DNA from: a virus
Lineage: Duplodnaviria; Caudoviricetes
Reading direction: 5' to 3' (one strand)
Length of the DNA: 55,497 nucleotides
Virus record (IMG/VR): IMGVR_UViG_3300023174_000207
Coordinates: 1 to 55,497 of that record
Shown here: piece by piece, positions 24,726 to 39,157 of the stretch
How positions within the stretch are numbered: position 1 is the stretch's first letter
Layout: each line of letters begins with the position of its first letter
Program-made: the position numbers and the translations under genes
Notes under the pieces: model-generated
Told to the model about the DNA's origin: nothing
Databases searched by the model: none
The model's input: the letters and a program-made list of their open reading frames with translations, nothing else

Positions 24726-25057
24726 TTGATTTCCCCGATAAACGGCATTGTCTTATGACCTTCGTCAACCATGGTTTCAAGTATTTGTCCGTAAGCAAAA
24801 GGTCTTGCTATTTCAATAACATAGCGTCTAAATTTAAAGTATATGGCTAATTTTTCTACTACCGTAAAGTGTCTATACATTGCAAGGTCTCTATGCACAG
24901 TGTCTTTTAACGATGGTGGTAAAAAGTAATCCCATTTTCTAGTGTAGATAAACTCATGAGGGTTGCTGTCCATGCGTTCAAGCAAAAGTTTTACTTGGTC
25001 ATGACATAAAAATTTTAGAAGGTGGCTTGGGTGTAGAAAATGGAGAACTGGTGGCAT
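24722..25057 (-). CDS. Hypothetical protein
   Basis: 111-aa ORF filling the gap between the VRR-NUC and polymerase genes. Confidence 0.55.
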   Translation of the reverse strand: MPPVLHFLHPSHLLKFLCHDQVKLLLERMDSNPHEFIYTRKWDYFLPPSLKDTVHRDLAMYRHFTVVEKLAIYFKFRRYVIEIARPFAYGQILETMVDEGHKTMPFIGEIK

Positions 25058-25059
25058 AG

Positions 25060-25365
25060 TTAGCCTCGCCCATCGCTGTCAAAGGACGCAAAATATAATT
25101 TCAAATCGTCAATCAGTTCTTCGTTAACAACAAAGGATTGACCGCCCGCCCGCCGTATGCGTAGCAGTTCTCGCTCTTGCAATGCGGTTAGTTTGCCCTT
25201 GACGGTCTTGCACTCAATAGCAATGAACGCACCCATGTAGCAACAGATAATATCGGGAACACCACTACGACCATAGCCGTGCGTGGCAGGGAAAAAGTAG
25301 TAGACTCCGTAGTCTTTGAGTATTTTGACGACGGCATCCTTTACCTTTGATTCAGGTGTGGGCAT
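25060..25365 (-). CDS. VRR-NUC nuclease / Holliday junction resolvase-like
   Basis: PESKVK...GVPDII...IECK...TALQ motif. Confidence 0.85.
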   Translation of the reverse strand: MPTPESKVKDAVVKILKDYGVYYFFPATHGYGRSGVPDIICCYMGAFIAIECKTVKGKLTALQERELLRIRRAGGQSFVVNEELIDDLKLYFASFDSDGRG

Positions 25366-25399
25366 GGGTCTTGACTTCCTATTGTGTAATTATTGACAC

Positions 25400-25428
25400 A
25401 GTATAATCCTTAATTACATTTTTGCAAA
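25400..25428 (-). promoter_or_regulatory. Possible sigma70-like promoter for the replication operon
   Basis: Minus strand TTGCAA...TATACT, 16-17 bp spacing, AT-rich upstream. Confidence 0.45.
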
Positions 25429-25456
25429 CTATTTTTATTAGGACAAACCCGAAGTA

Positions 25457-25485
25457 GGACATAGTGTCATTGTGACACTTTGTCC
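25457..25485. repeat. 29-bp palindrome, copy 1
   Basis: GGACATAGTGTCA-TTG-TGACACTTTGTCC. Confidence 0.95.
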
Positions 25486-25487
25486 CA

Positions 25488-25514
25488 TAAAAAAAGCCAC
25501 CCGAAGGTGGCTTG
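25488..25514 (-). terminator. Intrinsic terminator ending the early operon
   Basis: AAGCCACC-cgaa-GGTGGCTT (UUCG loop on the minus strand) followed by a U-tract. Confidence 0.8.
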
Positions 25515-25635
25515 GTGTAGGCTAAAGTAGATTCCGCATCCTACTTGCGGTGTCGGGAGATTGTTGGCTTACGCCTTGACTTGCATCACATCTACTAGGC
25601 TAGCAAGAACAACCATCGGAAATACAATGCTTATT

Positions 25636-26541
25636 CTATTCTTTAAGGTAGAAGTAGGTGTTAGGATACTTCTCCGCCATATACTGCTCAGGCTTGAACA
25701 TAACCCCAAACTGACACATCTCGGCAGATTGAAGAAGTTTGAACACACCTAACTTTGTTTGAAAGTCTGTCGGCATATCGGTAAAACTTTTATACCTAGC
25801 AAGGGTTTTGGTAGCATAACTGTAAATAATGTATGCTCCATCAGGACGCAATAACACACCATAACCTTTGTCATTTTTAATACCATTAACTATTTGTTCG
25901 CTCTCGTAGTAATTAGAACAAGCAGTTAAGTATTTCTTTTGGTCTTTGACTGTGGCTGGTATTACAGGTAATGATATTGTGCTTTCACCTTTAAGCCTAG
26001 CAAGATACCCAAGCAGAGCATAGTTCATGCCTTCACCATCATCGTCAAACGACCAACTAACTTCATGGCGATATTCTCCGTGCAAACTATCAGTCCTATC
26101 ACGGATTGTTTTTGCTATCTCGCCAATTAGTTCTTGGTCTGCTCTACCAATAAATAACTTTTTAATCTTGCGTAGAGCAACTTTAATGTTGCTAGTTACG
26201 GTGGTGTTTTCGTCGCCACGCATTTTACTAATACGAAAGCTACTTACTTCGAATACATCTACCCTGCCACCATTCATGCAACGCTTTCCAACAAACAAAG
26301 AACCAAGTTCCTCACCATTTTCAAAGACTTTGACACCCCTGAATATTGTCTTTTGCTCGTATTTGTCGTCGACTGGTGTATGAATTGTTTCTGTGTAACT
26401 GTGATGGGCATGAGCCACAAAGTTAACTAACGGTTTTGCTAGTTGCACCTGTGCTAGGAAGTCCATCAACTTAGGATTTACTTCCACTTCGTTGTATTTA
26501 GTCGGCAGTTTAGACCTGTCGATTTTAATTATGCTTGTCAT
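25636..26541 (-). CDS. Hypothetical early protein
   Basis: 301-aa ORF with AAGGA RBS. Confidence 0.75.
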   Translation of the reverse strand: MTSIIKIDRSKLPTKYNEVEVNPKLMDFLAQVQLAKPLVNFVAHAHHSYTETIHTPVDDKYEQKTIFRGVKVFENGEELGSLFVGKRCMNGGRVDVFEVSSFRISKMRGDENTTVTSNIKVALRKIKKLFIGRADQELIGEIAKTIRDRTDSLHGEYRHEVSWSFDDDGEGMNYALLGYLARLKGESTISLPVIPATVKDQKKYLTACSNYYESEQIVNGIKNDKGYGVLLRPDGAYIIYSYATKTLARYKSFTDMPTDFQTKLGVFKLLQSAEMCQFGVMFKPEQYMAEKYPNTYFYLKE

Positions 26542-26549
26542 ACATTTCC

Positions 26550-27446
26550 TTAAAAGTTAAATTTAGCTAGGATTGAGTCAACCTTTTGCTTAACTGCTTC
26601 ACGAGCAGTGAACGACTCCCGCAAGTCCGATACATCGTAGCCTTTAATACTTGCTTCAAGCTCGGCACGAGCCAACTCTAGTTTGGGGTCTTGCGTGATG
26701 TTCAAGTGTTTCAACATATTAATAAGCTCGGTAGCGTTATCCATTAGTGAGTCACGGAATATGCGTGGCTTCAGCACAGTCCCATTAGTAAGAGGGTCAT
26801 CGCTTGCAACCTCGTCATACTGAAGTCTGTCACTCATGCGGGTAAGGCAGTCATGCAGTCTAGCCCAAGCGTCACGCATTGCGTTGTTGAGACGCTCTTG
26901 GTATGCTGTGTCACAGTTTGCTAGTATTTCCGCCTTAGCGTCTTCATTTATGTCGATACGGAAATCACCCGCCGTCGGCACAGGGAAGAAGTTATACGAG
27001 AATTTGAATCTGTTCTTCAGCGTATGGACTTCGGGATACTCTGTTCTGTCGAACAAATCACCCAACTGAAAAGCCGCAGCAATAACTAGGTTCGGGTAGG
27101 AGTCAATGAATCTGTCGACTAAAGCCATGTAGTTGGTTTCTAGCACACCCAACTGTTCCTTGTATGCCATGAAGTTAGACATAGGCAGTAAGCGTGAGCC
27201 GTTGTCCGACCAAGGTAGAGTCTGTGCCAAGTGCCATGTTCTAGCACCCGATGCGTATTTGAGGATTGACTCCAACACACCTGTGCCTGCCATAAGGTTC
27301 TTGTTCACATTGACTGTGGATACCTTGGTGTTCTTCGCACTATCTACCTCGGCGGATACCTTCTTGTCCAACTTGCGTGCAGTCCAACTGCTGATACTTA
27401 GTTCGACTAGCACGGCTGATGATGCAATACTTATTGAGTTATTCAT
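26550..27446 (-). CDS. DUF3150-like helical protein linked to the MoxR/vWA module
   Basis: LVELSISSWTARKLD, TLPWSDNG and EYPEV...F motifs. Family assignment is from recollection and needs an HMM check. Confidence 0.55.
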   Translation of the reverse strand: MNNSISIASSAVLVELSISSWTARKLDKKVSAEVDSAKNTKVSTVNVNKNLMAGTGVLESILKYASGARTWHLAQTLPWSDNGSRLLPMSNFMAYKEQLGVLETNYMALVDRFIDSYPNLVIAAAFQLGDLFDRTEYPEVHTLKNRFKFSYNFFPVPTAGDFRIDINEDAKAEILANCDTAYQERLNNAMRDAWARLHDCLTRMSDRLQYDEVASDDPLTNGTVLKPRIFRDSLMDNATELINMLKHLNITQDPKLELARAELEASIKGYDVSDLRESFTAREAVKQKVDSILAKFNF

Positions 27447-27466
27447 TTGTATTCCTTTAGGTTATA

Positions 27467-27495
27467 GGACTTAGTGTCACTCTGACACTTTGTCC
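27467..27495. repeat. 29-bp palindrome, copy 2
   Basis: GGACTTAGTGTCA-CTC-TGACACTTTGTCC. Contains the stop codon of 27477..27686. Confidence 0.95.
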
Positions 27496-27686
27496 CTTTG
27501 TTTATAAAAATCACTGCTTTGGTAAAACTTAACAAGGTGCTGTATTGCTTGAGAATAGGATAAGTTGAACCCTAGGGTTTTACCCATCTCATCTTTTACT
27601 TCTGCGAGCATTGTCACAGTCTCAGGATTAAGACTGATGTTTACTTTGCCATCGCTGGCACGACCTTTCGGTATTTTTGTAGTCAT
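27477..27686 (-). CDS. Ribbon-helix-helix-like DNA-binding protein
   Basis: VNISLNPETVTMLAEVK...SYSQAIQHLV strand-helix-helix pattern. AAGGAG RBS. Confidence 0.55.
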   Translation of the reverse strand: MTTKIPKGRASDGKVNISLNPETVTMLAEVKDEMGKTLGFNLSYSQAIQHLVKFYQSSDFYKQRDKVSE

Positions 27687-27695
27687 GATTTCTCC

Positions 27696-28898
27696 TTATT
27701 CAACATGAACGACTTTACCTACTACTGATTCATTAAAATGATTGTTGCCTTTGATGCACCACAATACAGGTGCTTCGATAGACCAATCGCTTGGGTTTTG
27801 TGATGGAATGTAGCCGTCGGTCAAAATGATTAAGCACTCAGGTTTGATGTCATGCTTTTTCATAAACTTGGGCAAACACGCAGGTTCAGTCCCACCGCCA
27901 CCCGCAGGCTTAGTGGTTTCAACTAGACCCGCAAGTTCATTGTCACGATAGGTTTCCCTTGACGCAACATGGGTGTCCCAATACAGCAGGTCAATCTGTT
28001 CAGGATTTACCTCGTCGCAGATAGACTTCACCTCTGACAAGAACTGACTAAGTTCTTCCCCACCGATAGAGCCTGATGTGTCCACACCGATAGCGATACC
28101 GCCTACCTTTTCAGAATAAGACGATGGCATGATTAAGTCGGCGGCGATATACCGCTTGTGCAATCGTTTCCATGTAGTCTTGTCTTTGCCGTGCATGGCA
28201 GTCTTGACAAAATCACGCAATGCTTCTCGCCAATTTACTTTAGGCACAAGCAAGTCACCCATCTCACGAGATACATTACCGCCCATCTTGCCCACTAGCA
28301 TAGAGCCTTGTCGTAGTGCTGACTCGATTTCCTTGGCAACTTCTTCCTTGTCCTGCTCAGACATATCTTGGGCTTCGTCCCAATCGTGTCCGTCAAGGGA
28401 TTCTTTACCACCACCGCCACCACCACGACCACCTTGTTGTTCTTCCTCAAGGATTTTGAATACTTGCCCTGAGTCCATACCACGAAAGCGTTCATCAATA
28501 AGACCTAGCACATTGCCTTGTGCGTCGGTTGGGAAATCAGTCATATCATTCTCAGGGTCATAGTCCCTGATTTGCAGATTGATAACATAGTCGCAAGCCA
28601 TGTTAGCCAAACGACTGTTCTTCTTATTCAACGGTTGCCACACTACGAGGTGACGATAAGCCTTGTGCATATTCTCATGCAAGATAAGGAAGGCTAGTTG
28701 CTTGTCGTTCAAACTGTCGACAAACTTTCGGTCATACACCACATCAACACCATTGGTTTGAGCCGTGCCACTAGAAGTCTTGTCTCGGACTTCGACCTTG
28801 CCAATCATGAACAAACCTGCAAACAAACAAAAGTTTGGGTGTTTCATAAGTTGCACATGGATTCGTTCAATCCGTTGCTCTGCGGTTAGTTGAGCCAT
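27696..28898 (-). CDS. DUF2201-type metallopeptidase fused to vWA domain
   Basis: HENMH zincin motif, NMACDYVIN, MIDAS VDTSGS, GGGGT and ILTDG. Confidence 0.88.
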   Translation of the reverse strand: MAQLTAEQRIERIHVQLMKHPNFCLFAGLFMIGKVEVRDKTSSGTAQTNGVDVVYDRKFVDSLNDKQLAFLILHENMHKAYRHLVVWQPLNKKNSRLANMACDYVINLQIRDYDPENDMTDFPTDAQGNVLGLIDERFRGMDSGQVFKILEEEQQGGRGGGGGGKESLDGHDWDEAQDMSEQDKEEVAKEIESALRQGSMLVGKMGGNVSREMGDLLVPKVNWREALRDFVKTAMHGKDKTTWKRLHKRYIAADLIMPSSYSEKVGGIAIGVDTSGSIGGEELSQFLSEVKSICDEVNPEQIDLLYWDTHVASRETYRDNELAGLVETTKPAGGGGTEPACLPKFMKKHDIKPECLIILTDGYIPSQNPSDWSIEAPVLWCIKGNNHFNESVVGKVVHVE

Positions 28899-29161
28899 TG
28901 CATTTTCTCCTCGTTAGGTTTAACTTCTACATCTACTTCTTCGCCTTCTCTATCTACATAGTCGCTTACTGCGTTAGCAAATAGTCGAATAGCCTCATGC
29001 GGTGGCACATTGGCATGCCCTAGCATGGTGTTAATAAGCATGGTAAATAACACAGACATGACCATACCTAATTCCATTTCTTCTTTCTCAAAGTAAGAGC
29101 CAAGTGTTTCGGCTATGCTTTCCAACTGCTCTTGCCTTGCTACTACTTCTTCGTCGTTCAT
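28886..29161 (-). CDS. Acidic hypothetical protein
   Basis: 91 aa, Glu-rich, AAAGGA RBS. Sits between the AAA+ and vWA genes. Confidence 0.6.
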   Translation of the reverse strand: MNDEEVVARQEQLESIAETLGSYFEKEEMELGMVMSVLFTMLINTMLGHANVPPHEAIRLFANAVSDYVDREGEEVDVEVKPNEEKMQWLN

Positions 29162-29182
29162 AGTTTTCCTTTAGTTAGGTTG

Positions 29183-29211
29183 GGACAAAGTGTCACGATG
29201 ACACTCTGTCT
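29183..29211. repeat. 29-bp palindrome, copy 3
   Basis: GGACAAAGTGTCA-CGA-TGACACTCTGTCT. Confidence 0.95.
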
Positions 29212-29212
29212 T

Positions 29213-30307
29213 TTAGAACAAGTATTGATTCTCACGCATCCAATCGCAGAACGACTGGCTTGTTAAGAACATCTTCTTCTTGTCGTCGTTCTTCATACCT
29301 GTCAAGCAGAACACAGACTGCAACTCTTTCGGAGTCCGCTTGAGATACTCAAAGAACTTATTGATTGTTTCTCTATCGACACGCTGAACTGCCGAGAACG
29401 CTAGTAAACAAAGGGCGGCGGGACTTGTGGGAACTTGAGCCGTTTTGGGGTTCTTGATAATCTCTTCCCATGATGGCAACGAATCCGCAACATCAACAAA
29501 AGACATCAACTCACGAGCAGAATACGCACCGATAGTGCCTTCCAATGCACAAGTAATTGCATTAGTGGTTGAAGAGCCACGAACCTTAAGAATATTTGAT
29601 GCTCTCTCAAGGGAACGAGGGCTAACGAAAGCCTTCTGTGCTTCTTTTGGTTGAAAGATATGCTTGTTGCCTGCCTGTGATGGGTCTAGGTATGACGCTA
29701 GAACTTGAGGATTGTTCTTAACCCATGCTAGAACTTCAGCAACAATATCGTTCTTGACTGCCCACTCACCCCATGAGTTCGGTTCGATAGAGCCATCGGG
29801 GTTAAAGCCTGCTGATGGTTTCTTGATATGAACGACACTCACACGATTGCGTGTATGGGAACGCATTACATCATTGACACCGTCGGTGCTGTAATTACCA
29901 GCAGTAACGACTATCGTTTGCTTGTGCAATGGGATACCCATAACTTGCCGTGGTTCGTTAAGCATAGGGTGCAACATATTCTGCACACCCAATGGTGCTT
30001 TGGTTATCTCGTCAATGAACACGACGAGTGGTTCGTCCAAATGAAAACCCCACATCTCGTTAGGATAAATGCGAGTAGTCTTGGTGCTATGGTCGGGGAT
30101 TGGCACACCCAACTCGCCCAACTCAATGTTCGGTCCGTCGATATAAACACCACGATACCCTGTGCGTGCAACAATGTTCTTGAACATCGAGGTCTTGCCC
30201 ACACCCATCTCACCCATCAGGTGAATAGTTCCGTTCCCACCCAACGCAACAATCATATCTTCTGCTTCTTTGAGCGTTGCGGATTTACTTAGTAATACTT
30301 CAGCCAT
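29213..30307 (-). CDS. MoxR-like AAA+ ATPase
   Basis: Walker A GEMGVGKT, Walker B VVFIDE, TAGN, SPRS sensor motif. Adjacent to a vWA gene. Confidence 0.88.
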   Translation of the reverse strand: MAEVLLSKSATLKEAEDMIVALGGNGTIHLMGEMGVGKTSMFKNIVARTGYRGVYIDGPNIELGELGVPIPDHSTKTTRIYPNEMWGFHLDEPLVVFIDEITKAPLGVQNMLHPMLNEPRQVMGIPLHKQTIVVTAGNYSTDGVNDVMRSHTRNRVSVVHIKKPSAGFNPDGSIEPNSWGEWAVKNDIVAEVLAWVKNNPQVLASYLDPSQAGNKHIFQPKEAQKAFVSPRSLERASNILKVRGSSTTNAITCALEGTIGAYSARELMSFVDVADSLPSWEEIIKNPKTAQVPTSPAALCLLAFSAVQRVDRETINKFFEYLKRTPKELQSVFCLTGMKNDDKKKMFLTSQSFCDWMRENQYLF

Positions 30308-30338
30308 TTTTGATTTCCTTAAGGTTATATTTAATTAA

Positions 30339-30367
30339 AGACATTGTGTCATCGTGACACTTTGTCC
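30339..30367. repeat. 29-bp palindrome, copy 4
   Basis: AGACATTGTGTCA-TCG-TGACACTTTGTCC. Confidence 0.93.
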
Positions 30368-31329
30368 TACTTTGCATACATATACTTGTCATTTCCGTCA
30401 TGAAACGGAGTGCCAATTACTACTTCTTCTTCTTTGAATAGCGTGTCCCTGAAGTGATACTTCAAGATTTCTTCAAAGTATTTCTTAAACGCTTGTGGCG
30501 AACAAGAAACAAAATTGTCCCGATACGAATACTTACCCGCATTGTGAGCAATTAGATACATCAGGTTGTAAGCCAACTCCAAATCCCCAGATTCGTTAAA
30601 CTTATCCAATGCTTGAATAACAACTGCTCGATTGGACCTGTCGTTAGGTTTTCTGTTCCAATGGTAAGCAGGTAGCAAATCATCATCTTGGAGTTTGAAA
30701 TACTCCTTGACTTTGGTTATCTCCCTTTTCTCACCATCGTATACATTTGAATCTAGCCTACTGTCCATGCTCAAAGCGGTGCAAGCGTAGTCGATAAACT
30801 TCTTGTATCGCTTACGCAAGGCATTCATCTCTTTACGATTAAGCCTATACACAGTCTCAGGTGTTACATCTTTGGGCATGAAGTCCCCATCGACAGAACG
30901 AAAAACTGTTTTGCCCATGTCGCTAAGAACAAAACTTTGGTTCTGTTTGTTGATGAGATACCACTTGCCACGCATTGACCCAATCTTAGCGACACCGAAC
31001 AAAGCATAGGTAAGCATATTCATTACTGAAACACCACGATACCTTCGACAATCAAACACTACATCGCCATTTGGGTAGAAGGTAAGGTAGTCGTAGTCAT
31101 ACATCTGACAAACATAAACATCAACGAACTCACCCAATGGGTTATCAGGTGTTTCAATGCTTGCCCGCTTATGCACAATCTCCATCCACTTGTGCCGTCG
31201 GTTATCGCCAAGTGGTCGTAGGTTGTCGCTACCCCTGATTGGGGTAGTCTTTTCGTAGCGTTCCTTTGCTTGAGCATAGTTTGCTATCGGCTTAATACGG
31301 GCGGAGTTATACCCCGAATGAATACGCAT
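30367..31329 (-). CDS. Hypothetical early protein
   Basis: 320-aa ORF with TAATG coupling. Confidence 0.75.
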   Translation of the reverse strand: MRIHSGYNSARIKPIANYAQAKERYEKTTPIRGSDNLRPLGDNRRHKWMEIVHKRASIETPDNPLGEFVDVYVCQMYDYDYLTFYPNGDVVFDCRRYRGVSVMNMLTYALFGVAKIGSMRGKWYLINKQNQSFVLSDMGKTVFRSVDGDFMPKDVTPETVYRLNRKEMNALRKRYKKFIDYACTALSMDSRLDSNVYDGEKREITKVKEYFKLQDDDLLPAYHWNRKPNDRSNRAVVIQALDKFNESGDLELAYNLMYLIAHNAGKYSYRDNFVSCSPQAFKKYFEEILKYHFRDTLFKEEEVVIGTPFHDGNDKYMYAK

Positions 31330-32159
31330 TACTTACCTGCCTTTCCCTCGTAGTATTCAACGATGATGGTCAAGCGTTTGATTTCCTTACGCAAAGACTC
31401 AATCTGTGCCAAGGATTCGTCATACGCAACATTACGCACCTCTCGTCTTGTCTTTGCGTCTACCTCACGCTGAAGTCTGCGAGCCTCAGTCTGCCACTCA
31501 GTCACCCGATTTTCCAAGAACAAAATGTAATTCTCTCTGTCTTGGTCAATAGGCATTGGCTTTAACTGCTCTGCAATTTCCAATGACCTTGGCATAGCAA
31601 ACGATGTTACTTTTTCTGTCGGCTTGAACTCGAATGGGTTCTTCTTGACTTTTGGTTTTTGCAAGCAACCTTTAGCCAAGGCTTCGTCGTATGGGTAATA
31701 CTTCATATACCCTGTGCTGACTGACTTTTTCTTGCCAATCAAACCACGAGATACAAGACTGCCCAACTTCATGTTGAGAACTTTGAGTGCAACATCTTTA
31801 CCGACATAGGTGTGGATAGTTGTAGCGGTTCTGCAACCTGTCTTCAAAGCACTAAGCACCCGCTCTTCCAAACTTTTTACATGCTTGGGGTATGCTCTAG
31901 CACCGCTTGATACATTGCTACCTTTGCGGATTTTCCACATGGCTGTGTGAATCGTGTTCAACCTTTTGCCTGTCGTTTGGGAAATGTCCAAGGCTTTGTT
32001 AATGCCGTTGTCCATGCACCACTTCGTTGCTTCCATGACTGACAGAGTGCTGAAGTCGGGTAGCCGTGGGGCATTTACATCTACTTCAGGCTTTTGGTTA
32101 TCCATGCTAGCCATCTGTGCTTTTACTTCTGCTAATACTGCGTTTACTTCAGGGTTCAT
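31329..32159 (-). CDS. Hypothetical early protein (possible HTH/wHTH + coiled coil)
   Basis: 276 aa, AAGGAG RBS, basic centre, C-terminal heptad repeats. Confidence 0.65.
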   Translation of the reverse strand: MNPEVNAVLAEVKAQMASMDNQKPEVDVNAPRLPDFSTLSVMEATKWCMDNGINKALDISQTTGKRLNTIHTAMWKIRKGSNVSSGARAYPKHVKSLEERVLSALKTGCRTATTIHTYVGKDVALKVLNMKLGSLVSRGLIGKKKSVSTGYMKYYPYDEALAKGCLQKPKVKKNPFEFKPTEKVTSFAMPRSLEIAEQLKPMPIDQDRENYILFLENRVTEWQTEARRLQREVDAKTRREVRNVAYDESLAQIESLRKEIKRLTIIVEYYEGKAGK

Positions 32160-32180
32160 AACATACTCCTTTTAGTTAAG

Positions 32181-32209
32181 GGACTTAGTGTCACAATGAC
32201 ACTTTGTCT
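32181..32209. repeat. 29-bp palindrome, copy 5
   Basis: GGACTTAGTGTCA-CAA-TGACACTTTGTCT. Confidence 0.95.
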
Positions 32210-32475
32210 TACTTCGTTAGCCATATAAAAAGAAAAATAGGCAGGGCTATGGCACACCCACCCATGAAAAGGGTCATAAAAAACTCAGAGAAGAACTCAA
32301 GCGTATGGCGTAGGTCTGACTTGTGTCTTTCTATTGCACACGCATAGGTTGCATCTTTGAACGCTTCAGATACGCTACGGCTAGTCCTGCCTGCCACATG
32401 ATGTGGGTCGGCAGTTCCCCGATAGGTTCGCATATCTACACCTTCAACAAACATCTTTGCTTTCTTTGGTTTCAT
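32209..32475 (-). CDS. Small protein with C-terminal transmembrane segment
   Basis: AAGGAG RBS and a hydrophobic C-terminus. Confidence 0.6.
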   Translation of the reverse strand: MKPKKAKMFVEGVDMRTYRGTADPHHVAGRTSRSVSEAFKDATYACAIERHKSDLRHTLEFFSEFFMTLFMGGCAIALPIFLFIWLTK

Positions 32476-32644
32476 TCTTTAACTCCTTCAAGTCGTTAGT
32501 CATAACATCAAGCCTGTGTATTACATTGAAAATAATCAAATTGGCATGGTTTCTAGTAACACCACGCATACGAGTCATAGCCAATGCCTTAACCATTGCT
32601 TTAGCATTGGATATCATTTCGTCCAGTTTCTCCTCGTCGGTCAT
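32444..32644 (-). CDS. Hypothetical protein
   Basis: GGGAG RBS and ATGA overlap. Confidence 0.55.
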   Translation of the reverse strand: MTDEEKLDEMISNAKAMVKALAMTRMRGVTRNHANLIIFNVIHRLDVMTNDLKELKNETKESKDVC

Positions 32645-32829
32645 TTTTCTCCCTGTAATGAGGTTAGTTTGGCTTTCATAATTGCGAGTTCGGCTTCTCC
32701 TTGCACATATTGAGCAAGGTCTTCGGCAGTCCTGATACTGTCTTTGTTTAACTCAAGAACAACTTGGAACTCCCTGATTTGGCTCAACAACTCGCTAATG
32801 CGTTGCCCTTTGTAGTATTCCGTCATCAT
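32641..32829 (-). CDS. Hypothetical protein
   Basis: ATG at 32829 overlaps the previous stop codon. Confidence 0.55.
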   Translation of the reverse strand: MMTEYYKGQRISELLSQIREFQVVLELNKDSIRTAEDLAQYVQGEAELAIMKAKLTSLQGEK

Positions 32830-33095
32830 GCCCTCACATAAAAGGAACACGCAATACTGTTGGGTATCGACTCGAATACCTCTTTACTTACTTCGATTTG
32901 CTCACCCGCAGTAACGGCAACTTCGCCACCGAAAAAGTAATAGGTGTCATAGTCTATCTTATCGGGTTTACCCCACCAATCTTTAACTATGTGGTTATGC
33001 ACCTCACTTGGGTCTTGGTCGGTAGCAAAGCGGATAGAGGTGGTTGCCTCGTATTCCCCGATGGTCATGTTTACTGTTGCTAAGTAGTATTTCAT
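32826..33095 (-). CDS. Hypothetical protein
   Basis: GGAGG RBS and ATGA overlap. Confidence 0.6.
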   Translation of the reverse strand: MKYYLATVNMTIGEYEATTSIRFATDQDPSEVHNHIVKDWWGKPDKIDYDTYYFFGGEVAVTAGEQIEVSKEVFESIPNSIACSFYVRA

Positions 33096-33226
33096 TCGCC
33101 CTCCAACATTGCTTTAGCCTCGGCTAGATACCCAAACCCTTCTTCGACAAGTAGCAAATCTTCTTCCTCTATGCCCTTGTGGATTAGCGTGTAGGCTACA
33201 TGTAGTTTGGCAATTATTTCGTGCAT
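33092..33226 (-). CDS. Small acidic hypothetical protein
   Basis: AAGGAG RBS before ATG at 33226 (MHEIIAKL...). Confidence 0.55.
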   Translation of the reverse strand: MHEIIAKLHVAYTLIHKGIEEEDLLLVEEGFGYLAEAKAMLEGE

Positions 33227-33244
33227 TTCTTTCTCCTTAGGTTG

Positions 33245-33273
33245 GGACTTAGTGTCACTCTGACACTTTGTCG
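33245..33273. repeat. 29-bp palindrome, copy 6
   Basis: GGACTTAGTGTCA-CTC-TGACACTTTGTCG. Contains the stop codon of 33255..33506. Confidence 0.95.
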
Positions 33274-33506
33274 TTGGTTGTAAAGCGGTGGGAAAAGCCC
33301 TCAAGAAATCCTGCTTGAAAGGCTTCTTTAATTTCTGAGTAAATTACTCGGCTATGCGGTGCTACCTTATTTGCATACCCATGTCCCTTCTCGATAGCGA
33401 TATCTTCAATAGTGAATTCAGTCCTGAATTCTTCGGTAGCCCACTCAGGTGGGTCGGTATCACAATCAAAGTCATCTTCAAATCTTGGTTCTCTTGGTTC
33501 GCTCAT
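33255..33506 (-). CDS. Acidic hypothetical protein
   Basis: GAGGA RBS before ATG at 33506. Ends DKVSE inside the palindrome. Confidence 0.55.
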   Translation of the reverse strand: MSEPREPRFEDDFDCDTDPPEWATEEFRTEFTIEDIAIEKGHGYANKVAPHSRVIYSEIKEAFQAGFLEGFSHRFTTNDKVSE

Positions 33507-33742
33507 ATCGTCCTCTTGGGGTTTAGTTGCTTGAGCATCGCTAGGTCTGTGATACAAACATAGTTTGATTTGTTCAAAGGTGCAATAGTGAAATGCCGTT
33601 GCTTGGCAATCTCTTCCCCGCAGTCATGGCAAGTCATACGCAAACCATGCGTCTTGAGGTGCTCGGCTCGGTCTTCATCTACCTGTTTGCCGTAGCAGTT
33701 GGTGCATAGATAGCGGTGTGATTGGTGCGTCGCTTTGGTCAT
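33503..33742 (-). CDS. Small zinc-finger protein
   Basis: CTNC...CHDC and a GGGAG RBS. Confidence 0.65.
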   Translation of the reverse strand: MTKATHQSHRYLCTNCYGKQVDEDRAEHLKTHGLRMTCHDCGEEIAKQRHFTIAPLNKSNYVCITDLAMLKQLNPKRTI

Positions 33743-33760
33743 CGTATCTCCCTGTTTGTG

Positions 33761-33789
33761 GGACATAGTGTCAATGTGCCACTTTGTCC
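33761..33789. repeat. 29-bp palindrome, copy 7
   Basis: GGACATAGTGTCA-ATG-TGCCACTTTGTCC. Confidence 0.93.
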
Positions 33790-33834
33790 TGTTAGTAAAA
33801 AATAAGCAAAAAATGGGCGAATTCCCACTCTATT

Positions 33835-33875
33835 AGTATACCACACCTAGTGGGAAAAGTCAAGGATATGTCCTA
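33835..33875 (-). promoter_or_regulatory. Strong sigma70-like early promoter A
   Basis: TTGACT-17 bp-TATACT with extended -10 TG. Shares 26 bp with 34757-34782. Confidence 0.8.
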
Positions 33876-34018
33876 CTTTGAAGTCCGCCGTTTGCACACG
33901 GCGAGCAGGTATGTTGAGTGGCGGTCTTGCTAAATTTTATTGCGTCGCTTAGTCTTTTTTAGGGGGTTGGTGTGTCGCTAGGGGGGAACTGGTGGTTTTT
34001 GCAAAGCAAAAACAAAAT

Positions 34019-34047
34019 GGACAAAGTGTCAATTTGACACTTTGTCC
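34019..34047. repeat. 29-bp palindrome, copy 8 (perfect arms)
   Basis: GGACAAAGTGTCA-ATT-TGACACTTTGTCC. Confidence 0.95.
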
Positions 34048-34057
34048 CAAGGCACTA

Positions 34058-34645
34058 CTAAGCGATATTATGCTCAAGCACCATGTAGTTCAATACTTCC
34101 ATGTCCAAGGTATCAACCCAATCTTTGACCCGCTTACGCAATGCGACCAATTCGGACTTTGCGTCCTTGCCTAGTTCCTTTTGGCGGTGGGCAAGTTCCT
34201 TGCTGATTTTCTTAGCGGACTCTAACTTAGCAAGAGTGGGTTGAGCCAATAGACTTGCCATCTCCGCTTGTAATTGGTCATCGGACTTCTCAGCAAAAAC
34301 CGCCCTTGCCTTTGCCCTTTGTTCTGCTTTACGCTTTGCCTCAGGGTCATCAGATTCAGGGATAGTGATAGCGGACTCATGGCAAACCCGTTTCCACTTG
34401 GACTTGATAGCGTCCTCGGTCTTACCCGCATTTTGCAAGGTTTCCCAAAACAAAACACGACCCATTGAATACCTAGCCCATGAAGGCTTTGTGCCTAACA
34501 CCTCTGCGATTGTTGCAATAGCCTCGGCGATAGCGTCCTCGCCTTCGTCAAGAGCAAGGGTTGCGGATACTAACTGAGCATTTTCATGCTCGTCAAATTG
34601 CGATAACATCTCGGCGGTTTTTACTACTGTGGTTGAGTTTTTCAT
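34058..34645 (-). CDS. Early helical protein, paralog of 35564..36226
   Basis: GGAG RBS before ATG at 34645. Motifs IKSKWKR, KAEQRAKA and LQAEMASL. Confidence 0.75.
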   Translation of the reverse strand: MKNSTTVVKTAEMLSQFDEHENAQLVSATLALDEGEDAIAEAIATIAEVLGTKPSWARYSMGRVLFWETLQNAGKTEDAIKSKWKRVCHESAITIPESDDPEAKRKAEQRAKARAVFAEKSDDQLQAEMASLLAQPTLAKLESAKKISKELAHRQKELGKDAKSELVALRKRVKDWVDTLDMEVLNYMVLEHNIA

Positions 34646-34675
34646 AACAATCTCCATGGAGTGGGTTTAGGTATG

Positions 34676-34704
34676 GGACATAGTGTCACTCCGCCACTTT
34701 GTCC
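34676..34704. repeat. 29-bp palindrome, copy 9
   Basis: GGACATAGTGTCA-CTC-CGCCACTTTGTCC. Confidence 0.9.
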
Positions 34705-34741
34705 CGCATGGGGTGGAAACCATTTCCGACCTCACAAATAC

Positions 34742-34782
34742 AGTTTAACACAGGTGGTGGGAAAAGTCAAGGATATGTCCTA
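34742..34782 (-). promoter_or_regulatory. Strong sigma70-like early promoter B
   Basis: TTGACT-17 bp-TAAACT with extended -10 TG and an AT-rich upstream region. Confidence 0.75.
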
Positions 34783-34789
34783 TTTATTT

Positions 34790-35095
34790 TTGTAATGTTC
34801 TGAAAATAGGGGGTAATGTTCTACAATGTTCTGTTGGGTTGGAACAATAGAAAACCTTATGGGTATTGGGTTTGCGGTTAGTTTAGATATAATGTTCTAT
34901 TGTTCTATATAGATTAATATAAGAACGGCGGGGGTTTTTAGCACTATGCGTAGGGGGTCTTCGTCCCCTGCCAAAATAATTTTCCAAGGTTATTTTTTTT
35001 GGAACATTTGGAACATTTGGAACATTGCGTGTAAGTCCTTGATTACAAAGCGTTTCTATTGTTCCATGCAACGGAACATTACAAGAACAATATCA
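34790..35095. repeat. Cluster of ~12 AWTGTTC/GAACAWT heptamers; candidate replication origin
   Basis: AATGTTC at 34794, 34815, 34825 and 34891. ATTGTTC at 34899 and 35058. GGAACATT x3 at 35001-35026 and again at 35073. GAACAAT at 34842 and 35085. Non-coding with an AT-rich core. Confidence 0.6.
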
Positions 35096-35164
35096 GGGTT
35101 TCCCCTAGTTTACAAAGTGGGCAAAATCAATTATGCTCTGGTTCAGAGCATAACAAAAACAAGG

Positions 35165-35193
35165 GGACAAAGTGTCACGCTGACACAATGTCC
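35165..35193. repeat. 29-bp palindrome, copy 10
   Basis: GGACAAAGTGTCA-CGC-TGACACAATGTCC. Confidence 0.93.
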
Positions 35194-35239
35194 TGCGTGG
35201 CTTGTGCGTCGCTTACAACCAGTTCCCTAATTTTTTGCG

Positions 35240-35263
35240 AAAAAAACCCAGCCGAAGCTGGGT
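35240..35263 (-). terminator. Intrinsic terminator
   Basis: ACCCAGC-cgaa-GCTGGGT (UUCG loop on the minus strand) plus a U-tract. Confidence 0.8.
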
Positions 35264-35285
35264 CAAATTACTGCCATTGGACTAA

Positions 35286-35525
35286 CTAAATATATTTTGC
35301 AACATCAATAAAAATGCAACGGGTTTTTTTGGAATACCGGATCTCAAGATTAGTAAACCCAGCTTGAGCTAATTCTTTAAACTGGCTACGGTTTACATAT
35401 CTTCCGTCCAGCCCGTGAAAATAATCCACAATCCTAAAATCTTTATTGGCTTTCAGATCATCATACAATGCCGATTGTGATTTGTAATCCCTGCCGTATG
35501 CTGGGATAAGTATTAGTGATTTCAT
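35286..35525 (-). CDS. Hypothetical early protein
   Basis: 79 aa with a PAYGRDYKS motif. Confidence 0.65.
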   Translation of the reverse strand: MKSLILIPAYGRDYKSQSALYDDLKANKDFRIVDYFHGLDGRYVNRSQFKELAQAGFTNLEIRYSKKTRCIFIDVAKYI

Positions 35526-35563
35526 TTTTAATCGAGCTGGGTTTCCCCAGCCCGTCCTGTTAG

Positions 35564-36226
35564 TTAGATTTCAGAATCTTCCGGCTGGTATTGCTCGAGG
35601 ATAGCTAAAGAATCCTGAAGCATATCTTCATCAAAGCAATTTTTAGCTGCCTTGATTACCTCAGCCTGAAGATCTTTAATCCCAGCCATGCGTTCTTTTA
35701 AAGCGTCCTGATTTTTAGCTTTAATTGCTTTAGCTAATTTTCCGGCTTTAGCTAAATTTTCCGGAGTAGCTTTAGCCGTGAGCATAGCTATCTCAGCTTG
35801 TAAATCAGCGATTGGCTTAGCCTTTAATTCGTCCATAGCCAACTGGGCTTTCGTCCGCTGCTCAGCCTTTTTTTGGCTTCCGATCTCAGGACTAGCTGGT
35901 TTAGTTAAAGCATAATTCTCTTCCAGCCGACGGGTAAACCGCTTCCACATAGACTTGATACTGTCCAGCTCGAATAGCTCAGCATGGCTATTAGCCGTTA
36001 AGCCTTTTTTCTTGGCATAAGCTAATTTCATTACTTCAGACCCAGCTACCCATAAATGGTAATCAGCTTGTTTAATAATTTTGCCGTCCACTTCGATTGC
36101 AATTTCAACTGCACGGGCAAAATCTTCCACAGCCTGATCTGCATCTACTTCACTAACAGCAAACAAATCACCAACATCACTAAACAACTGCACTTGCGTA
36201 TCACTTAATTGGAATTGAATATCCAT
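35564..36226 (-). CDS. Early helical protein, paralog of 34058..34645
   Basis: Motifs IKSMWKR, KAEQRTKA and LQAEIAML. First gene of the leftward arm. Confidence 0.75.
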   Translation of the reverse strand: MDIQFQLSDTQVQLFSDVGDLFAVSEVDADQAVEDFARAVEIAIEVDGKIIKQADYHLWVAGSEVMKLAYAKKKGLTANSHAELFELDSIKSMWKRFTRRLEENYALTKPASPEIGSQKKAEQRTKAQLAMDELKAKPIADLQAEIAMLTAKATPENLAKAGKLAKAIKAKNQDALKERMAGIKDLQAEVIKAAKNCFDEDMLQDSLAILEQYQPEDSEI

Positions 36227-36282
36227 TTTCCGTTATCCCTTTTTAGGTTAAACACCGGTGAACCATTCACCAGCTAAGATAT

Positions 36283-36325
36283 ATCTTAACACAAAAATAA
36301 AATAAATACAGTAAATATTTTATAA
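36283..36325 (-). promoter_or_regulatory. Possible extended -10 promoter
   Basis: Minus strand TGTGT-TAAGAT with very AT-rich upstream sequence. The -35 is weak. Confidence 0.45.
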
Positions 36326-36343
36326 AATCCCACCAGCTTGTCC

Positions 36344-36382
36344 GGCTAGTGCGCCGCCTTACTTGGCTAGTGCGCCGCCTTA
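36344..36382. repeat. Tandem 18-bp direct repeat (period 21)
   Basis: GGCTAGTGCGCCGCCTTA at 36344 and 36365. Confidence 0.85.
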
Positions 36383-37007
36383 ATTACGGGTTTTTTATGT
36401 CCGGTTATTGCCCTGGCAGTTTCGGCAGCCGACTCCCAGGGAGCTGGGCCCAAGCAAAAAACCTCAGGCCGGACCGGTTATTTTTAGCTGGGATCGCGGC
36501 CCCACCCTACCCCAACCCCCCAAATAGCAAAAAATGGAACCAGCCAACCCATATACACAATGATCTGCACAGTACATACCTCGTTTTTAAAAATTCACCA
36601 CTTATGACGCAATATCATCCTATAGCAGCGCAATAGATAATATCGCTAGCCGGCTAGCGAAAATGGCTTAAGCGCACAAAGTTACCTCATCCACGAAGCT
36701 CAAGGACCATTCGATCATCCTATGCTTGCTCAATACATAAGATTAAGCGTATACAGACGTATTTTTAATTAAAATGTCAGGCCCCGGGGGGTATACTTTT
36801 TCCTAGGGAAAAGTCAGGCTGCGTTATAGCAAAAGGACCCCCCACCATTTTTCCCGGGACTCCTACCCCAGGGGGGTATATAATTTTTATGTCCTTCACG
36901 TGGACACGGGGGGCAGTGGATTTTTATAACCAATACTTGTTCTATTGTTGCCATTGCCTCCCACCTTTGTTACACTTCGCACATATAAACCTCACAAACA
37001 AGGTTGT

Positions 37008-37598
37008 ATGCAAATACCTGTTGAGCCAAACCTCGACAAACCCGTACCAATACAAGCCCAGCCCCAAACAGGCCGGACGTACGAAGATCGGCTAAAAGTT
37101 GCCGGCAATACTGCTATGCTCCTTAATGAACTTGGAGCAGAGGATGACTTGTCCCCAGAAGAAAAAGAACAAGCTAGGCAAATGATTGAGAAGTTAAAGC
37201 CTGCGGATGCTAAACCAAGCCTACCTAGCAAGGAAGAAACGGACAGTACAAAGAACTACAACGTTGCTTTGGTTATCGGCACGTACCTAAATGAGTACGA
37301 GAAACAGATTGTTGCAGACAAAGTCCAGGTTAGAACAGTAGTTGTCAACCGTTTGATGGAAATAAGTAAGAACGAAGACGACAAAATCGCCCTAAAAGCT
37401 CTGGAATTGCTAGGAAAAGCCTCAGATTTGTTCACAGAACGCTCAGAAATCACCATTACCCACCAAACTAGCGATGAATTAAAGGCTGCAATCAAAGAAC
37501 GCATCAAATTATTGATGCAAACCCAGCAAATTGACAACAAAACCAAGGCCCAGAAGCAGTTAGCGGTCATTGATGCAGAGGCAAAAGAGGTCAAATGA
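37008..37598 (+). CDS. Probable terminase small subunit
   Basis: Directly upstream of TerL with ATGA overlap. Helical motif ALKALELLGK...LFTER. Confidence 0.65.
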   Translation: MQIPVEPNLDKPVPIQAQPQTGRTYEDRLKVAGNTAMLLNELGAEDDLSPEEKEQARQMIEKLKPADAKPSLPSKEETDSTKNYNVALVIGTYLNEYEKQIVADKVQVRTVVVNRLMEISKNEDDKIALKALELLGKASDLFTERSEITITHQTSDELKAAIKERIKLLMQTQQIDNKTKAQKQLAVIDAEAKEVK

Positions 37599-39157
37599 GC
37601 GTTTTATCGGCCCAAAACAGCGAAAAACAGAAGCTAGGACCGGAAGATCTGCAGTTTTTGCTAGATAACATCGATACTTTGTCAGATTCTCAGCTCAGAG
37701 TCCTTAAAGAAGAGCTAGATAACACCGTAGACGCAGTACATAAAGAGAACTGCCAAGAAAACTTCATGGATTTTGTTCATAAAGTGTGGCCTAACTTCAT
37801 TGATGGTGGGCATCATGAAGAAATGGCTGCCGCATTTGAAAGGGTGGCTCGTGGTGAATGCAAAAGACTTATTATTAATATGCCACCTAGGCATACAAAA
37901 TCTGAATTTGCTAGTTACCTCCTACCTGCTTGGTTTCTGGGTAAATTTCCTGAGAAAAAAGTTATACAAACCTCGCATACCGCTGAGCTTGCTGTGGGCT
38001 TCGGACGAAAAGTCCGTAATTTGGTCGACTCCGAAGTGTACAAGTCGATATTTCCGGGAGTTGGACTCCAAGCTGACTCAAAGGCAGCGGGCCGTTGGGC
38101 AACTAACAAGGGCGGAGACTACTTTGCGATTGGTGTTGGGGGAGCGGTTACTGGTAAAGGCGCAGATATCCTCATTATTGACGACCCACACTCAGAACAA
38201 GAGGCAACCCTAGCCGAGAATAACCCCGAGGTGTACGACAAAACGTACGAGTGGTACACATCCGGTCCAAGACAGCGTCTGCAGCCAGGGGGATCCATCA
38301 TTATTGTTATGACCCGGTGGTCAAAGCGGGACTTGACTGCCCAAGTGGTCAAAGCTGCGCAGCAACGCTCAGGAGAACAGTGGGAAGTTATTGAATTTCC
38401 TGCAATTTTGGACGATGGACAACCACTTTGGCCTGCGTTCTGGAAACTACAAGAACTTCAAGCGTTAAAGCAGGAATTGCCCAATGGCAAGTGGATGGCG
38501 CAGTATATGCAGTCGCCAACAAGCGACGTTAGCGCTATTGTGAAGCGTGAATGGTGGCAGATCTGGGAACATGAGAGCCCGCCTATGTGTGAATTCACAA
38601 TCCAGTCTTGGGATACGGCGTTCCTTAAGACGCAGCGGTCAGACTACTGCGCTTGTACAACCTGGGGGGTGTTCTATCAGCCTAATTCCAGGGGAGTGGA
38701 TGTCGCAAACATCATATTGCTCAATTCGTTCAAAGAACGCATGGAGTTTCCGGAGCTTAAACAGAAGGCAATGGAGCATTACAAAGAATGGGAGCCAGAT
38801 GCTCTGATTGTCGAAGCAAAAGCGTCCGGGGCACCGCTAGTGTTCGAGTTACGTGCGATGGGTATCCCTGTTCAGGAATATGTTCCGAGTAAAGGTAGCG
38901 ATAAAATTGCCCGTTTGAACGCAGTTGCTGATATATTTGCATCTGGAAGGGTTTGGGTTCCAAATACGCATTGGGCAGATGAGCTAGTTGAAGAAGTTGC
39001 AAGCTTCCCCAGTGGCGACCATGATGACTTGGTGGACTCAATGACTCAGGCAATGCTTAGATTTAGAAGGGGTGGCTTTGTATCGTTGGATTCAGATTAT
39101 GAAGACGAACCAACACCGTTCAAGTCTAGACGGAATAAGGGGTACTACAATGTTTAA
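37595..39157 (+). CDS. terL: Terminase large subunit
   Basis: MPPRHTKS Walker A, IIDDP Walker B, MTRW, SWDTA and HDDLVDS nuclease motifs. Confidence 0.95.
   Translation: MSVLSAQNSEKQKLGPEDLQFLLDNIDTLSDSQLRVLKEELDNTVDAVHKENCQENFMDFVHKVWPNFIDGGHHEEMAAAFERVARGECKRLIINMPPRHTKSEFASYLLPAWFLGKFPEKKVIQTSHTAELAVGFGRKVRNLVDSEVYKSIFPGVGLQADSKAAGRWATNKGGDYFAIGVGGAVTGKGADILIIDDPHSEQEATLAENNPEVYDKTYEWYTSGPRQRLQPGGSIIIVMTRWSKRDLTAQVVKAAQQRSGEQWEVIEFPAILDDGQPLWPAFWKLQELQALKQELPNGKWMAQYMQSPTSDVSAIVKREWWQIWEHESPPMCEFTIQSWDTAFLKTQRSDYCACTTWGVFYQPNSRGVDVANIILLNSFKERMEFPELKQKAMEHYKEWEPDALIVEAKASGAPLVFELRAMGIPVQEYVPSKGSDKIARLNAVADIFASGRVWVPNTHWADELVEEVASFPSGDHDDLVDSMTQAMLRFRRGGFVSLDSDYEDEPTPFKSRRNKGYYNV

Follow-up and report, generated by a model that had tools for sequence, protein, structure and literature searches.

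The window analysed here, the whole 55,497-nucleotide (nt) sequence of the IMG/VR virus record IMGVR_UViG_3300023174_000207 from a lake-water phage, contains two related minus-strand genes, open reading frames (ORFs) A and B, which lie on opposite sides of a sharp boundary in the content of short palindromic words. ORF A is the first gene within a block of early genes from which seven 4-base-pair (bp) palindromes have been purged over ~11 kilobases (kb), and ORF B, followed directly by the small gene orf79, lies outside that block. The favoured explanation, which is given about even credence, is that A and B are an ancient duplicate pair heading an early region purged of restriction sites in the manner of the first-step-transfer (FST) region of phage T5, and that B merely lies outside the purged block. 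The coordinates of the features discussed are collected in Table 1.

The kinship of the two genes is supported by direct comparison of their products. A reading of this DNA made from the letters alone (the sequence-only reading) had noticed ordered motifs shared by A and B, and these prove to be real: a BLASTP alignment of the two proteins (41.2 bits, 32/87 identical residues, E 2e-9) spans the three motif pairs, and addition of orthologs gives a colinear full-length alignment with 25-28% identity. A maximum-likelihood tree was calculated from 18 B and 14 A sequences, with every sampled lineage contributing one of each, and separates A-type from B-type proteins with 99/96 support and in 100% of 200 bootstrap trees. 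Because further representatives of the family fall on both sides of this split, the duplication is older than all sampled lineages. Sequence comparison thus identifies A and B as true paralogs that derive from an ancient duplication within a phage-only family of uncharacterised proteins.

The boundary between the two genes is defined by the seven palindromes AGCT, GATC, CCGG, GCGC, GGCC, GTAC and ACGT. Their longest gaps in the window (AGCT 26725 to 35256, GATC 23841 to 35340, CCGG 22353 to 35337, GCGC 24395 to 36351, GGCC 22293 to 36447, GTAC 24372 to 36572 and ACGT 24321 to 36757) start within 22293-26725, end within 35256-36757 and give the seven top ratios of gap to expectation among all strand-collapsed 4-mers. 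Outside the zone the same words occur at 1.3-6 per kb, and each gene inside it is depleted when compared with synonymous sequences (z from -2.5 to -5.9). The avoided words are all palindromes and are absent from coding and non-coding DNA alike. The right edge is sharp in the window, where the last CCGG stands at 35337, the last GATC at 35340 and the last AGCT at 35256, the latter within the stem of the terminator that follows orf79. The left edge is staggered by motif over 22.3-26.7 kb, inside the 5' portion of the gene for DNA polymerase A. The sharp boundary described in the sequence-only reading is therefore located at about 35256, and it recurs in relatives of the virus, in which the last dense site lies at the matching offset of +820 to +967 from the start of B. 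In one complete relative (66,656 nt long, its ends overlapping by 127 nt and its completeness rated at 100%), the last CCGG, GGCC and GTAC fall within 25 nt of one another in the 5' part of the orf79 homolog.

Two other words follow patterns of their own. CGCG occurs once in the 55,497 nt (at 36495) against ~134 expected and is absent from the complete relative; its avoidance is genome-wide, unlike that of the seven regional motifs. TCGA shows the opposite trend, with 5-7 copies per 2.5 kb within the zone, from ~25 to 35 kb; over the leftmost 25 kb of the window the figure is 1-4, and its pattern in the complete relative is alike.

The two paralogs differ accordingly in their site content. None of the seven motifs occurs in ORF A, for which three synonymous null models predict 10.3-12.3 (0/2000 shuffles reach the observed count of 0 in each); this bears out its placement in a motif-free zone. 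ORF B contains 20 sites, where 18.8 are expected when its own codons are permuted and 14.5 when the codon usage of genes outside the zone is applied. Among the seven motifs only AGCT stands out in B in these shuffles, with 14 copies against 9.7-9.8 from own-codon permutation (P 0.03-0.045) and 7.1 from outside-zone usage (P 0.006). Its density of 21.1 AGCT per kb is the highest of all genes in the window, the runner-up reaching 10.7. Of the 34 alanines of B, 25 are encoded by GCT (GCT/Ala 0.74), and some structural genes have similar values of 0.70-0.73. About two thirds of the AGCT enrichment in B is accounted for by amino-acid and codon composition, so that the possibility raised beforehand that GCT codon preference explains the enrichment holds for the larger part (9.7-9.8 of 14 AGCT come from the gene's own codons), and an excess is left. 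The counts first given for positions 35250-36500, roughly 20 AGCT, 9 CCGG and 6 GATC, are 22, 9 and 6 on recounting. The AGCT count (mean 7.2) is the top value among 841 overlapping 1.25-kb windows outside the zone, the CCGG count falls in the top 2.4% and the sum of the seven motifs in the top 2%. The genome maximum of that sum, 45, is reached in the 1.25-kb window from 35551, and the spacer between B and terS is the most palindrome-dense stretch.

Codon usage follows the same division. That of B and orf79 is closer to the late and middle genes than to the zone (log-likelihood per codon -1.04 versus -1.155), and that of A is best fitted by the zone genes. The G+C content at third codon positions (GC3) is 0.36 in B, 0.32 in orf79 and 0.50 in A, compared with 0.36 for the pooled late genes and 0.47 for the pooled zone genes.

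Pattern scans of IMG/VR retrieved 22 other contigs with a homolog of B. The gene order, with terS and terL running one way and B, (orf79), A and orf87 following one another the other way, is shared by 18 of the 22, four of which have A cut by the contig end, and the iterons of these relatives lie between (orf79) and A. Two of the remaining four contigs end before the place of A, one (L004) is rearranged and one (L007) has no A. Five further records that were searched whole, the complete relative among them, contain exactly 2 family members each. Orthologs of B share 66-80% identity with it in close relatives and 35-54% in distant ones, and those of orf79 share 84-92% in close relatives. The density of the seven palindromes per kb, taken over the window and 6 close relatives, is 22.8-39.5 in B versus 0-3.6 in A; a distant clade of 3 contigs has a weaker contrast (10-18 versus 5-6 per kb), and 9 further contigs show a matching drop in 500-nt bins. 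The motif set present in B varies by lineage, with 0-7 GATC, 0-4 CCGG and either 0 or 10 GGCC.

Among close relatives, dN/dS (the ratio of nonsynonymous to synonymous substitution rates) is 0.04-0.12 for B and 0.06-0.17 for A, with dS mostly >1 and undefined through saturation in 11/36 B pairs. Because dN/dS is low at such values of dS, both genes are judged to be functional. Since synonymous sites are saturated and dN/dS is low, the site contrast is re-created by selection in each lineage and not inherited. On the question raised in the sequence-only reading, relatives do keep both paralogs with the same contrast, and purifying selection acts on both copies. One exception concerns A. The contigs L007 and L008 are 99.7% identical over 5080 nt and then diverge in the palindrome upstream of A (L007 5040..5100 versus L008 6410..6470); L007 lacks A, orf87, orf100 and orf70, this naturally deleted or replaced segment lying between two palindrome copies. 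Because L007 has no A, this gene is at least sometimes dispensable, and in this single case the palindromes act as recombination joints. In the 4121-nt contig L004, B and orf79 (to the equivalent of window position 35223) are joined at position 1084, in inverted orientation, to the portal and structural region (41692 onward); L004 is either a rearranged genome or a chimeric assembly.

The DNA around the edge is rich in putative regulatory elements. The claim that each gene has its own TGTGT-TAA promoter-like element is upheld, with TGTGTTAA present at both A and B; the A promoter and the core of the B element are conserved among aligned relatives. The consensus promoter scan missed the extended -10 element of B and called a 9/12 match at 36344..36317 instead. 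The leader hairpins with a CCA loop that had been described for both genes differ in their standing. At B the stem is supported by 3 pairs with double compensatory changes in 9 sequences; at A the GGAAA-CCA-TTTCC hairpin near 34715 is visible in the window, and the leader alignment gives it a clear equivalent in contig L015 only, the conserved leader structure of A being a 29-bp palindrome. The probable start of ORF A is the ATG at 34645, which has GGAG 8 nt upstream and gives a protein of 195 amino acids (aa). The two 18-nt direct repeats upstream of B differ in sequence among lineages and are identical within each pair, as would be expected of a binding site for a co-evolving phage protein.

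About 500 nt of non-coding DNA between orf79 and A hold GAACATT copies, a palindrome and hairpins. Proceeding inward from the edge, the order is the first 29-bp palindrome, the non-coding GAACATT array, the A promoter, the second palindrome and A. Of 12 relatives examined, 11 have GAACATT in the gap between orf79 and A; it is the most frequent 7-mer of the gap in 6, and GAACAA/AGAACA words are most frequent in 5 others. The 29-bp palindromes number 10 in the window, at 25457..35193, all of them intergenic and confined to the zone, and they are conserved in relatives, the complete relative likewise having 10 copies confined to its zone. Most stand between cistrons, 15-25 nt ahead of a ribosome-binding site, and a sigma-70-like promoter lies just upstream of 2/10 (33863..33835 and 34770..34742). 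In the distant clade both palindrome arms have changed jointly to a TGACA...TGTCA core. The spacer between B and terS holds a perfect 18-bp palindrome, TCGCTAGCCGGCTAGCGA, at 36643..36660, and two copies of a C4-G6-TATA-like word at 36780..36880. Contigs of the RNA run X20 cover A (34134..34614) and 37304..37500 and none cover B; this run was not used as expression evidence, because its library may contain DNA and because contigs give no ranking of expression.

Table 1. Features at and around the edge of the purged zone (window positions; aa, amino acids)
Feature	Positions	Strand	Description
ORF A	34058..34657	-	199 aa; first gene within purged zone; A-type paralog
ORF B	35564..36226	-	220 aa; B-type paralog; outside purged zone
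orf79	35286..35525	-	79 aa; directly downstream of B and co-oriented; ordinary site content
Purged zone	24396..35255		~10.9 kb of minus-strand early genes; no GTAC, ACGT, GATC, GCGC, CCGG or GGCC; no AGCT from 26726
A promoter	34742..34770	-	sigma-70-type, TTGACT-17-TAAACT with TG extension; kept in 7/7 aligned relatives
B promoter-like element	36283..36292	-	extended -10 TGnTAAGAT, no recognisable -35; core kept in 9/9 aligned sequences
B leader hairpin	36254..36274	-	9-pair consensus stem, 3-nt loop (CCA on + strand); RNAalifold, 9 sequences
Palindrome in A leader	34676..34704		29 bp, ~20-30 nt upstream of start codon; conserved leader structure of A
Direct repeats upstream of B	36344..36382		two 18-nt copies, 21 nt start to start
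Terminator-like hairpin and T-run	35245..35264	-	intrinsic type, ends B-orf79 unit; terminator scan
Palindrome array, first copy	35165..35193		29 bp, GGACAAAGTGTCA-N3-TGACACTTTGTCC type; immediately inside zone
Non-coding iteron array	34794..35080		8 of the window's 11 GAACATT copies, 4 per strand
Perfect 29-bp palindrome and T-run	34019..34047	-	just after A; terminator-like

The favoured explanation supposes that A and B stand head-to-tail at the start of the leftward early genes as two separate units. The first and short unit would comprise B and orf79 and have an extended -10 promoter, a conserved leader hairpin and an intrinsic terminator to itself; A would open the next unit, behind an iteron array of ~500 nt and a strong promoter of the sigma-70 type. 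A very sharp and conserved change of selective regime would coincide with the terminator of the first unit, the ~11 kb downstream being purged and the DNA upstream ordinary. As in the FST region of T5, the purged block would be DNA that lies naked in the cell until anti-restriction measures take effect; these measures would be early proteins, perhaps together with an injected polyvalent protein of 2937 aa, and host type II restriction enzymes would remove lineages with sites in the block. B would keep the ordinary dialect by virtue of its position beyond the exposed block, not through complementary avoidance. In the least secure step, the iteron region that separates orf79 and A would be where the virion DNA has its leading end or some equivalent landmark of entry, this being the simplest physical account of the sharpness of the edge. 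Type II restriction is suggested because the avoided words are all palindromic and missing from coding and non-coding DNA, as would suit dimeric enzymes that recognise double-stranded DNA. No DNA methyltransferase of the families PF00145, PF01555 or PF02086 was found in the record, and the site-rich remainder of the genome is therefore probably protected by proteins. A sharp proximal edge combined with a graded distal one favours a leading end followed by time-dependent protection.

An unlikely alternative holds that the phage avoids sites for its own sake. The zone would then be present while an early phage nuclease cuts host DNA at short palindromes, or the purge would spare the zone from stray action of whichever factor reads the 29-bp palindromes. 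Zone and palindrome array are indeed co-extensive, both in the window (25457..35193 versus 24.4-35.26 kb) and in the complete relative (52034..62013 versus about 51.75-63 kb), and the zone encodes a VRR-NUC/Hjc-like nuclease. The idea is in print for T5: the available part of a preprint carries the proposal by Davison that the early nuclease A1 destroys host DNA at short palindromes (bioRxiv 10.1101/866236). Seven unrelated 4-mers and the genome-wide loss of CGCG nevertheless fit a varied host repertoire of restriction-modification (R-M) systems better than a single phage enzyme, and the strength of depletion and the motif set vary by lineage, AGCT being merely reduced in the complete relative.

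Several observations weigh against the T5-like explanation, and a first group of them concerns the site-dense tip formed by B, orf79 and the spacer between B and terS. B and orf79 lack ACGT, GTAC, GCGC and GGCC, of which ~10 would be expected from densities outside the zone; ACGT is absent from B in 9/9 close sequences, and its avoidance extends to 36757. AGCT exceeds own-codon permutation in 5/11 B genes. The B ortholog of contig L015 (3301..3957) has 10 GGCC versus 3.1 expected, and 20 of its 29 alanine junctions are palindromic (AGCT 8, GGCC 8 and TGCA 4, with AGCC 0 and GGCT 1). At several homologous alanine junctions, comparison of the sequence contexts shows xxG-GCC in L015 and xxA-GCT in the window. 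A mere shift in GC3 was considered for this exchange and rejected, GC3 being 0.36 in both genes and the motifs being interleaved along the gene. The pattern in L015 looks like selection for sites and not a simple lack of purge, and the apparent preference of the tip for palindromic alanine junctions, a bias shown by two lineages, is the sole positive hint of a functional decoy or sensor. The orf79 of L015 contains 47.6 sites per kb.

A second group of contrary observations concerns the position of the DNA end, for which contigs were used (24 runs listed, four examined; they contain no read starts). Two contigs of the DNA run X2 stop at 36259 and 36781 and continue into common non-phage letters, which we take to resemble adapter, and a 25,960-nt contig of a relative begins at about window position 36786. 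These stops are weak hints of a possible DNA end in the spacer between B and terS and away from the zone edge, and if it lies there, the site-rich B tip would enter first and the exposure model would not explain the tip. The contig ends that cluster in or just after A in 7 related contigs were also considered as DNA ends; they are read instead as strain variation that breaks assemblies.

The same observations bear on the proposal, considered improbable, that the tip is a sacrificial decoy or sensor in which palindromes are selected, with the purged A as a fail-safe. The tip has the top AGCT count of the genome, adjoins the site-free zone in all relatives and shows the AGCT excess and the L015 junctions just described. 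Enrichment for all palindromes is significant in just 2/11 B genes, however, most of the AGCT excess comes from an alanine-rich protein with GCT preference, and the tip still avoids ACGT. To our knowledge there is no mechanism by which ~40 sites could titrate or report on restriction enzymes. An elaboration with a slender chance of being right is that one early function is encoded twice. A tip positively maintained in its palindromes, which would be AGCT in most lineages and GGCC together with AGCT in another, would act as sensor or decoy at the entering end; if it were cut, B and orf79 would be lost, the A-led programme in purged DNA would continue, and the iteron array would serve as the checkpoint.

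Very little weight is given to bet-hedging, the proposal of the sequence-only reading that the two copies avoid different motif sets so that one survives any host R-M repertoire. Purifying selection maintains the two copies in all lineages, the motif set of B varies across lineages, and L007 lives without A, so that some redundancy is possible; the retention of B in L007 fits either redundancy or an accessory role for A and does not demonstrate bet-hedging. The opposite dialects on which the proposal was built turn out to be one-sided, with A alone purged: B avoids no set that A carries, and the four motifs missing from B are missing from A as well, which contradicts complementary avoidance. 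ACA/TGT and CAC/GTG, described as sparse in B, are sparse there (13.6 and 15.1 per kb versus 31.9 and 24.5 for the genome), but A is similarly poor in them (20.0 and 15.0), and no contrast between the copies results. A cut anywhere in an entering molecule would moreover endanger the whole genome and not one gene, and proteins with 25-37% identity are too diverged to be assumed interchangeable. That B was recently imported or that the junction is chimeric is contradicted by the data: although B and A differ in GC3 and codon usage and L004 joins B-orf79 inverted to structural genes, the junction recurs in 18 related contigs and, with 0 differences, in an independent assembly from another study that spans 34936..36259, the A/B split and gene order predate all sampled lineages, and the codon usage of B is that of the phage's late genes.

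Among 1.84 billion cluster representatives, 210 belong to the family of A and B at E <= 0.001, and almost all of them are 170-270 aa long. The source labels that were looked up are all 'hypothetical' or automatic, and two automatic labels were disregarded; the longest contigs bearing family proteins measure 55-84 kb. Typical members measure ~200-250 aa and combine an alpha/beta domain at the N-terminus with a basic stretch that is conserved (K..QR..A) and with long helices. The AlphaFold model of B (predicted local distance difference test score, pLDDT, 81.8) places the alpha/beta domain at residues 1-105 and a helix at 115-136, followed by long helices; alignment and model together put the invariant K120, Q123, R124 and A127 on the helix at 115-136. 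The model of orf79 has a pLDDT of 84.2. Scans of A, B and orf79 against Pfam and PHROG gave nothing above threshold, and Pfam searches with 87 family members gave three unrelated single matches only. The best hit of a profile search against the PDB is to the helices of apolipoprotein E (E 0.0057), and the only match of the bZIP kind is weak (E 0.27). Foldseek returned no match at E <= 0.001 against the PDB and BFVD, and a wide VIA-align search gave no clear fold match (best Z 7.0 for B, to a coiled-coil segment, and 3.3 for orf79). A lead to DUF3102 from the ESM Atlas was set aside because its score of 0.81 is below the trust level; the other entries there are unnamed viral clusters only. Prediction of a complex between the two proteins ended in 'no answer' (score 0.25 against a mark of 0.32), and nothing was concluded from it. 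A and B do not resemble DNA mimics of the Ocr or ArdA type in the two properties compared, with no Pfam family above cut-off and isoelectric points of only mild acidity (5.7 for A and 5.0 for B). That they act as dimeric nucleic-acid binders, with a basic helix and a coiled coil encoded beside palindrome and repeat arrays, is only a guess from the models, though a reasonable one.

The record is classed as linear, with a CheckV completeness of 88%. Late genes run rightward from a terS-like ORF (36945) and terL (37595..39157). The replication genes run leftward from ~24.7 kb to 14.4 kb and encode DNA polymerase A, a PD-(D/E)XK nuclease, a SNF2 helicase and a DUF927 primase-helicase. Other leftward genes, at 24.7-36.2 kb, include those for a MoxR-type AAA ATPase, a DUF2201 VWA protein, a DUF3150 protein and the VRR-NUC/Hjc-like nuclease. 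The MoxR-type ATPase, the DUF2201 metallopeptidase/VWA protein and a weak DUF3150 match are clustered at 26550..30307, within the purged zone. The 2937-aa polyvalent protein is encoded at 5342..14155 and has ART-PolyVal (ADP-ribosyltransferase), LPD39 and HATPase (GHKL-ATPase) domains; it is a candidate anti-defence protein of the injected type. Near-identical sequence was found in freshwater and other aquatic metagenome runs from 12 studies. The nearest cultured matches of terL are lake and marine phages with 45-58% identity, and the closest of them, DSL-LC04, differs in gene order and has no depleted zone, which makes it unusable as a model. A tblastn search with B against 50,697 phage records and a blastn search with 33800..37600 gave no match.

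Phage T7 offers a comparison for the position of A. Gene 0.3 of T7 (Ocr) is an anti-restriction gene at the leading end, whose expression from host-type promoters precedes exposure of the remaining genome. A is likewise the first gene of an early region behind a host-type promoter. Unlike Ocr, A and B are only mildly acidic and have no Pfam, PHROG, PDB or BFVD match, and an anti-restriction role is a candidate function here.

The closest parallel is with T5. According to the available parts of two sources, T5-like phages resist type I and type II R-M unless sites lie in the FST region, which has a repeat-rich non-coding region at its border (PMC10644984; bioRxiv 10.1101/866236). As far as those texts describe it, the likeness extends to an early-gene block that is site-free, with sites tolerated elsewhere in the genome, to a long, repeat-rich non-coding region at the border of the block and to products that are mostly uncharacterised host-takeover or anti-immunity proteins. 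The present lineage is unrelated to T5 and is known from sequence alone. The purge affects seven 4-bp palindromes over ~11 kb and not particular 6-bp sites, and whereas the terminal repeats of T5 carry exact duplicates of the FST genes, the flanking copies here are diverged paralogs with 25-37% identity. General Pfam and PHROG scans of A, B and orf79 showed no homologs of T5 A1, A2 or dmp; no dedicated search was made. By analogy and on sequence grounds, the block may represent a variant of the T5 principle that is regional and involves several motifs, in a lineage that is uncultured and unrelated to T5.

Under-representation of palindromic R-M sites has been described as a passive anti-restriction strategy of phages (Rusinov et al., 2018; PMC6286503). 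In the available text of that study palindromic sites are avoided, as they are here; the avoidance in the present lineage differs in being regional and sharp-edged, with only CGCG lost genome-wide. A search of that text by terms found no mention of early genes, injected DNA or regional effects. Likewise, the accessible portions of the literature yielded no report of regional avoidance of restriction sites or palindromes in early phage regions, although supplementary site tables may hold some. The palindrome array recalls the PeSL cassettes of T4-type phages, which in the accessible accounts are repeated promoter/stem-loop elements between early ORFs and breakpoints of gene gain and loss (PMC2839356, PMC4122927). 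As in those accounts, the variant without A breaks exactly in the palindrome upstream of A, in one case. The arrays differ in that a promoter lies upstream of only 2/10 palindromes, most of which precede a ribosome-binding site, and in that there is no sequence relation to the PeSL elements so far as these are given.

The A/B pair constitutes a natural control, in which members of one family under the same purifying selection lie in purged and in unpurged DNA at a distance of only some hundred bases. It gauges how far selection on DNA words overrides codon choice, with 0 versus 10-12 sites and a GC3 of 0.50 versus 0.36. For this uncultured group of freshwater phages, the conserved sharp edge marks a landmark of infection, whether physical or temporal, and the proteins at this edge, A, B and orf79, are uncharacterised, the A/B family alone amounting to 210 representative clusters. 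Should the edge be confirmed as the boundary of a first transfer, the T5 principle would hold in an unrelated lineage as well, and the purge would provide a sequence-only route to the first-exposed DNA, and hence to candidate anti-defence genes, in metagenomic phages.

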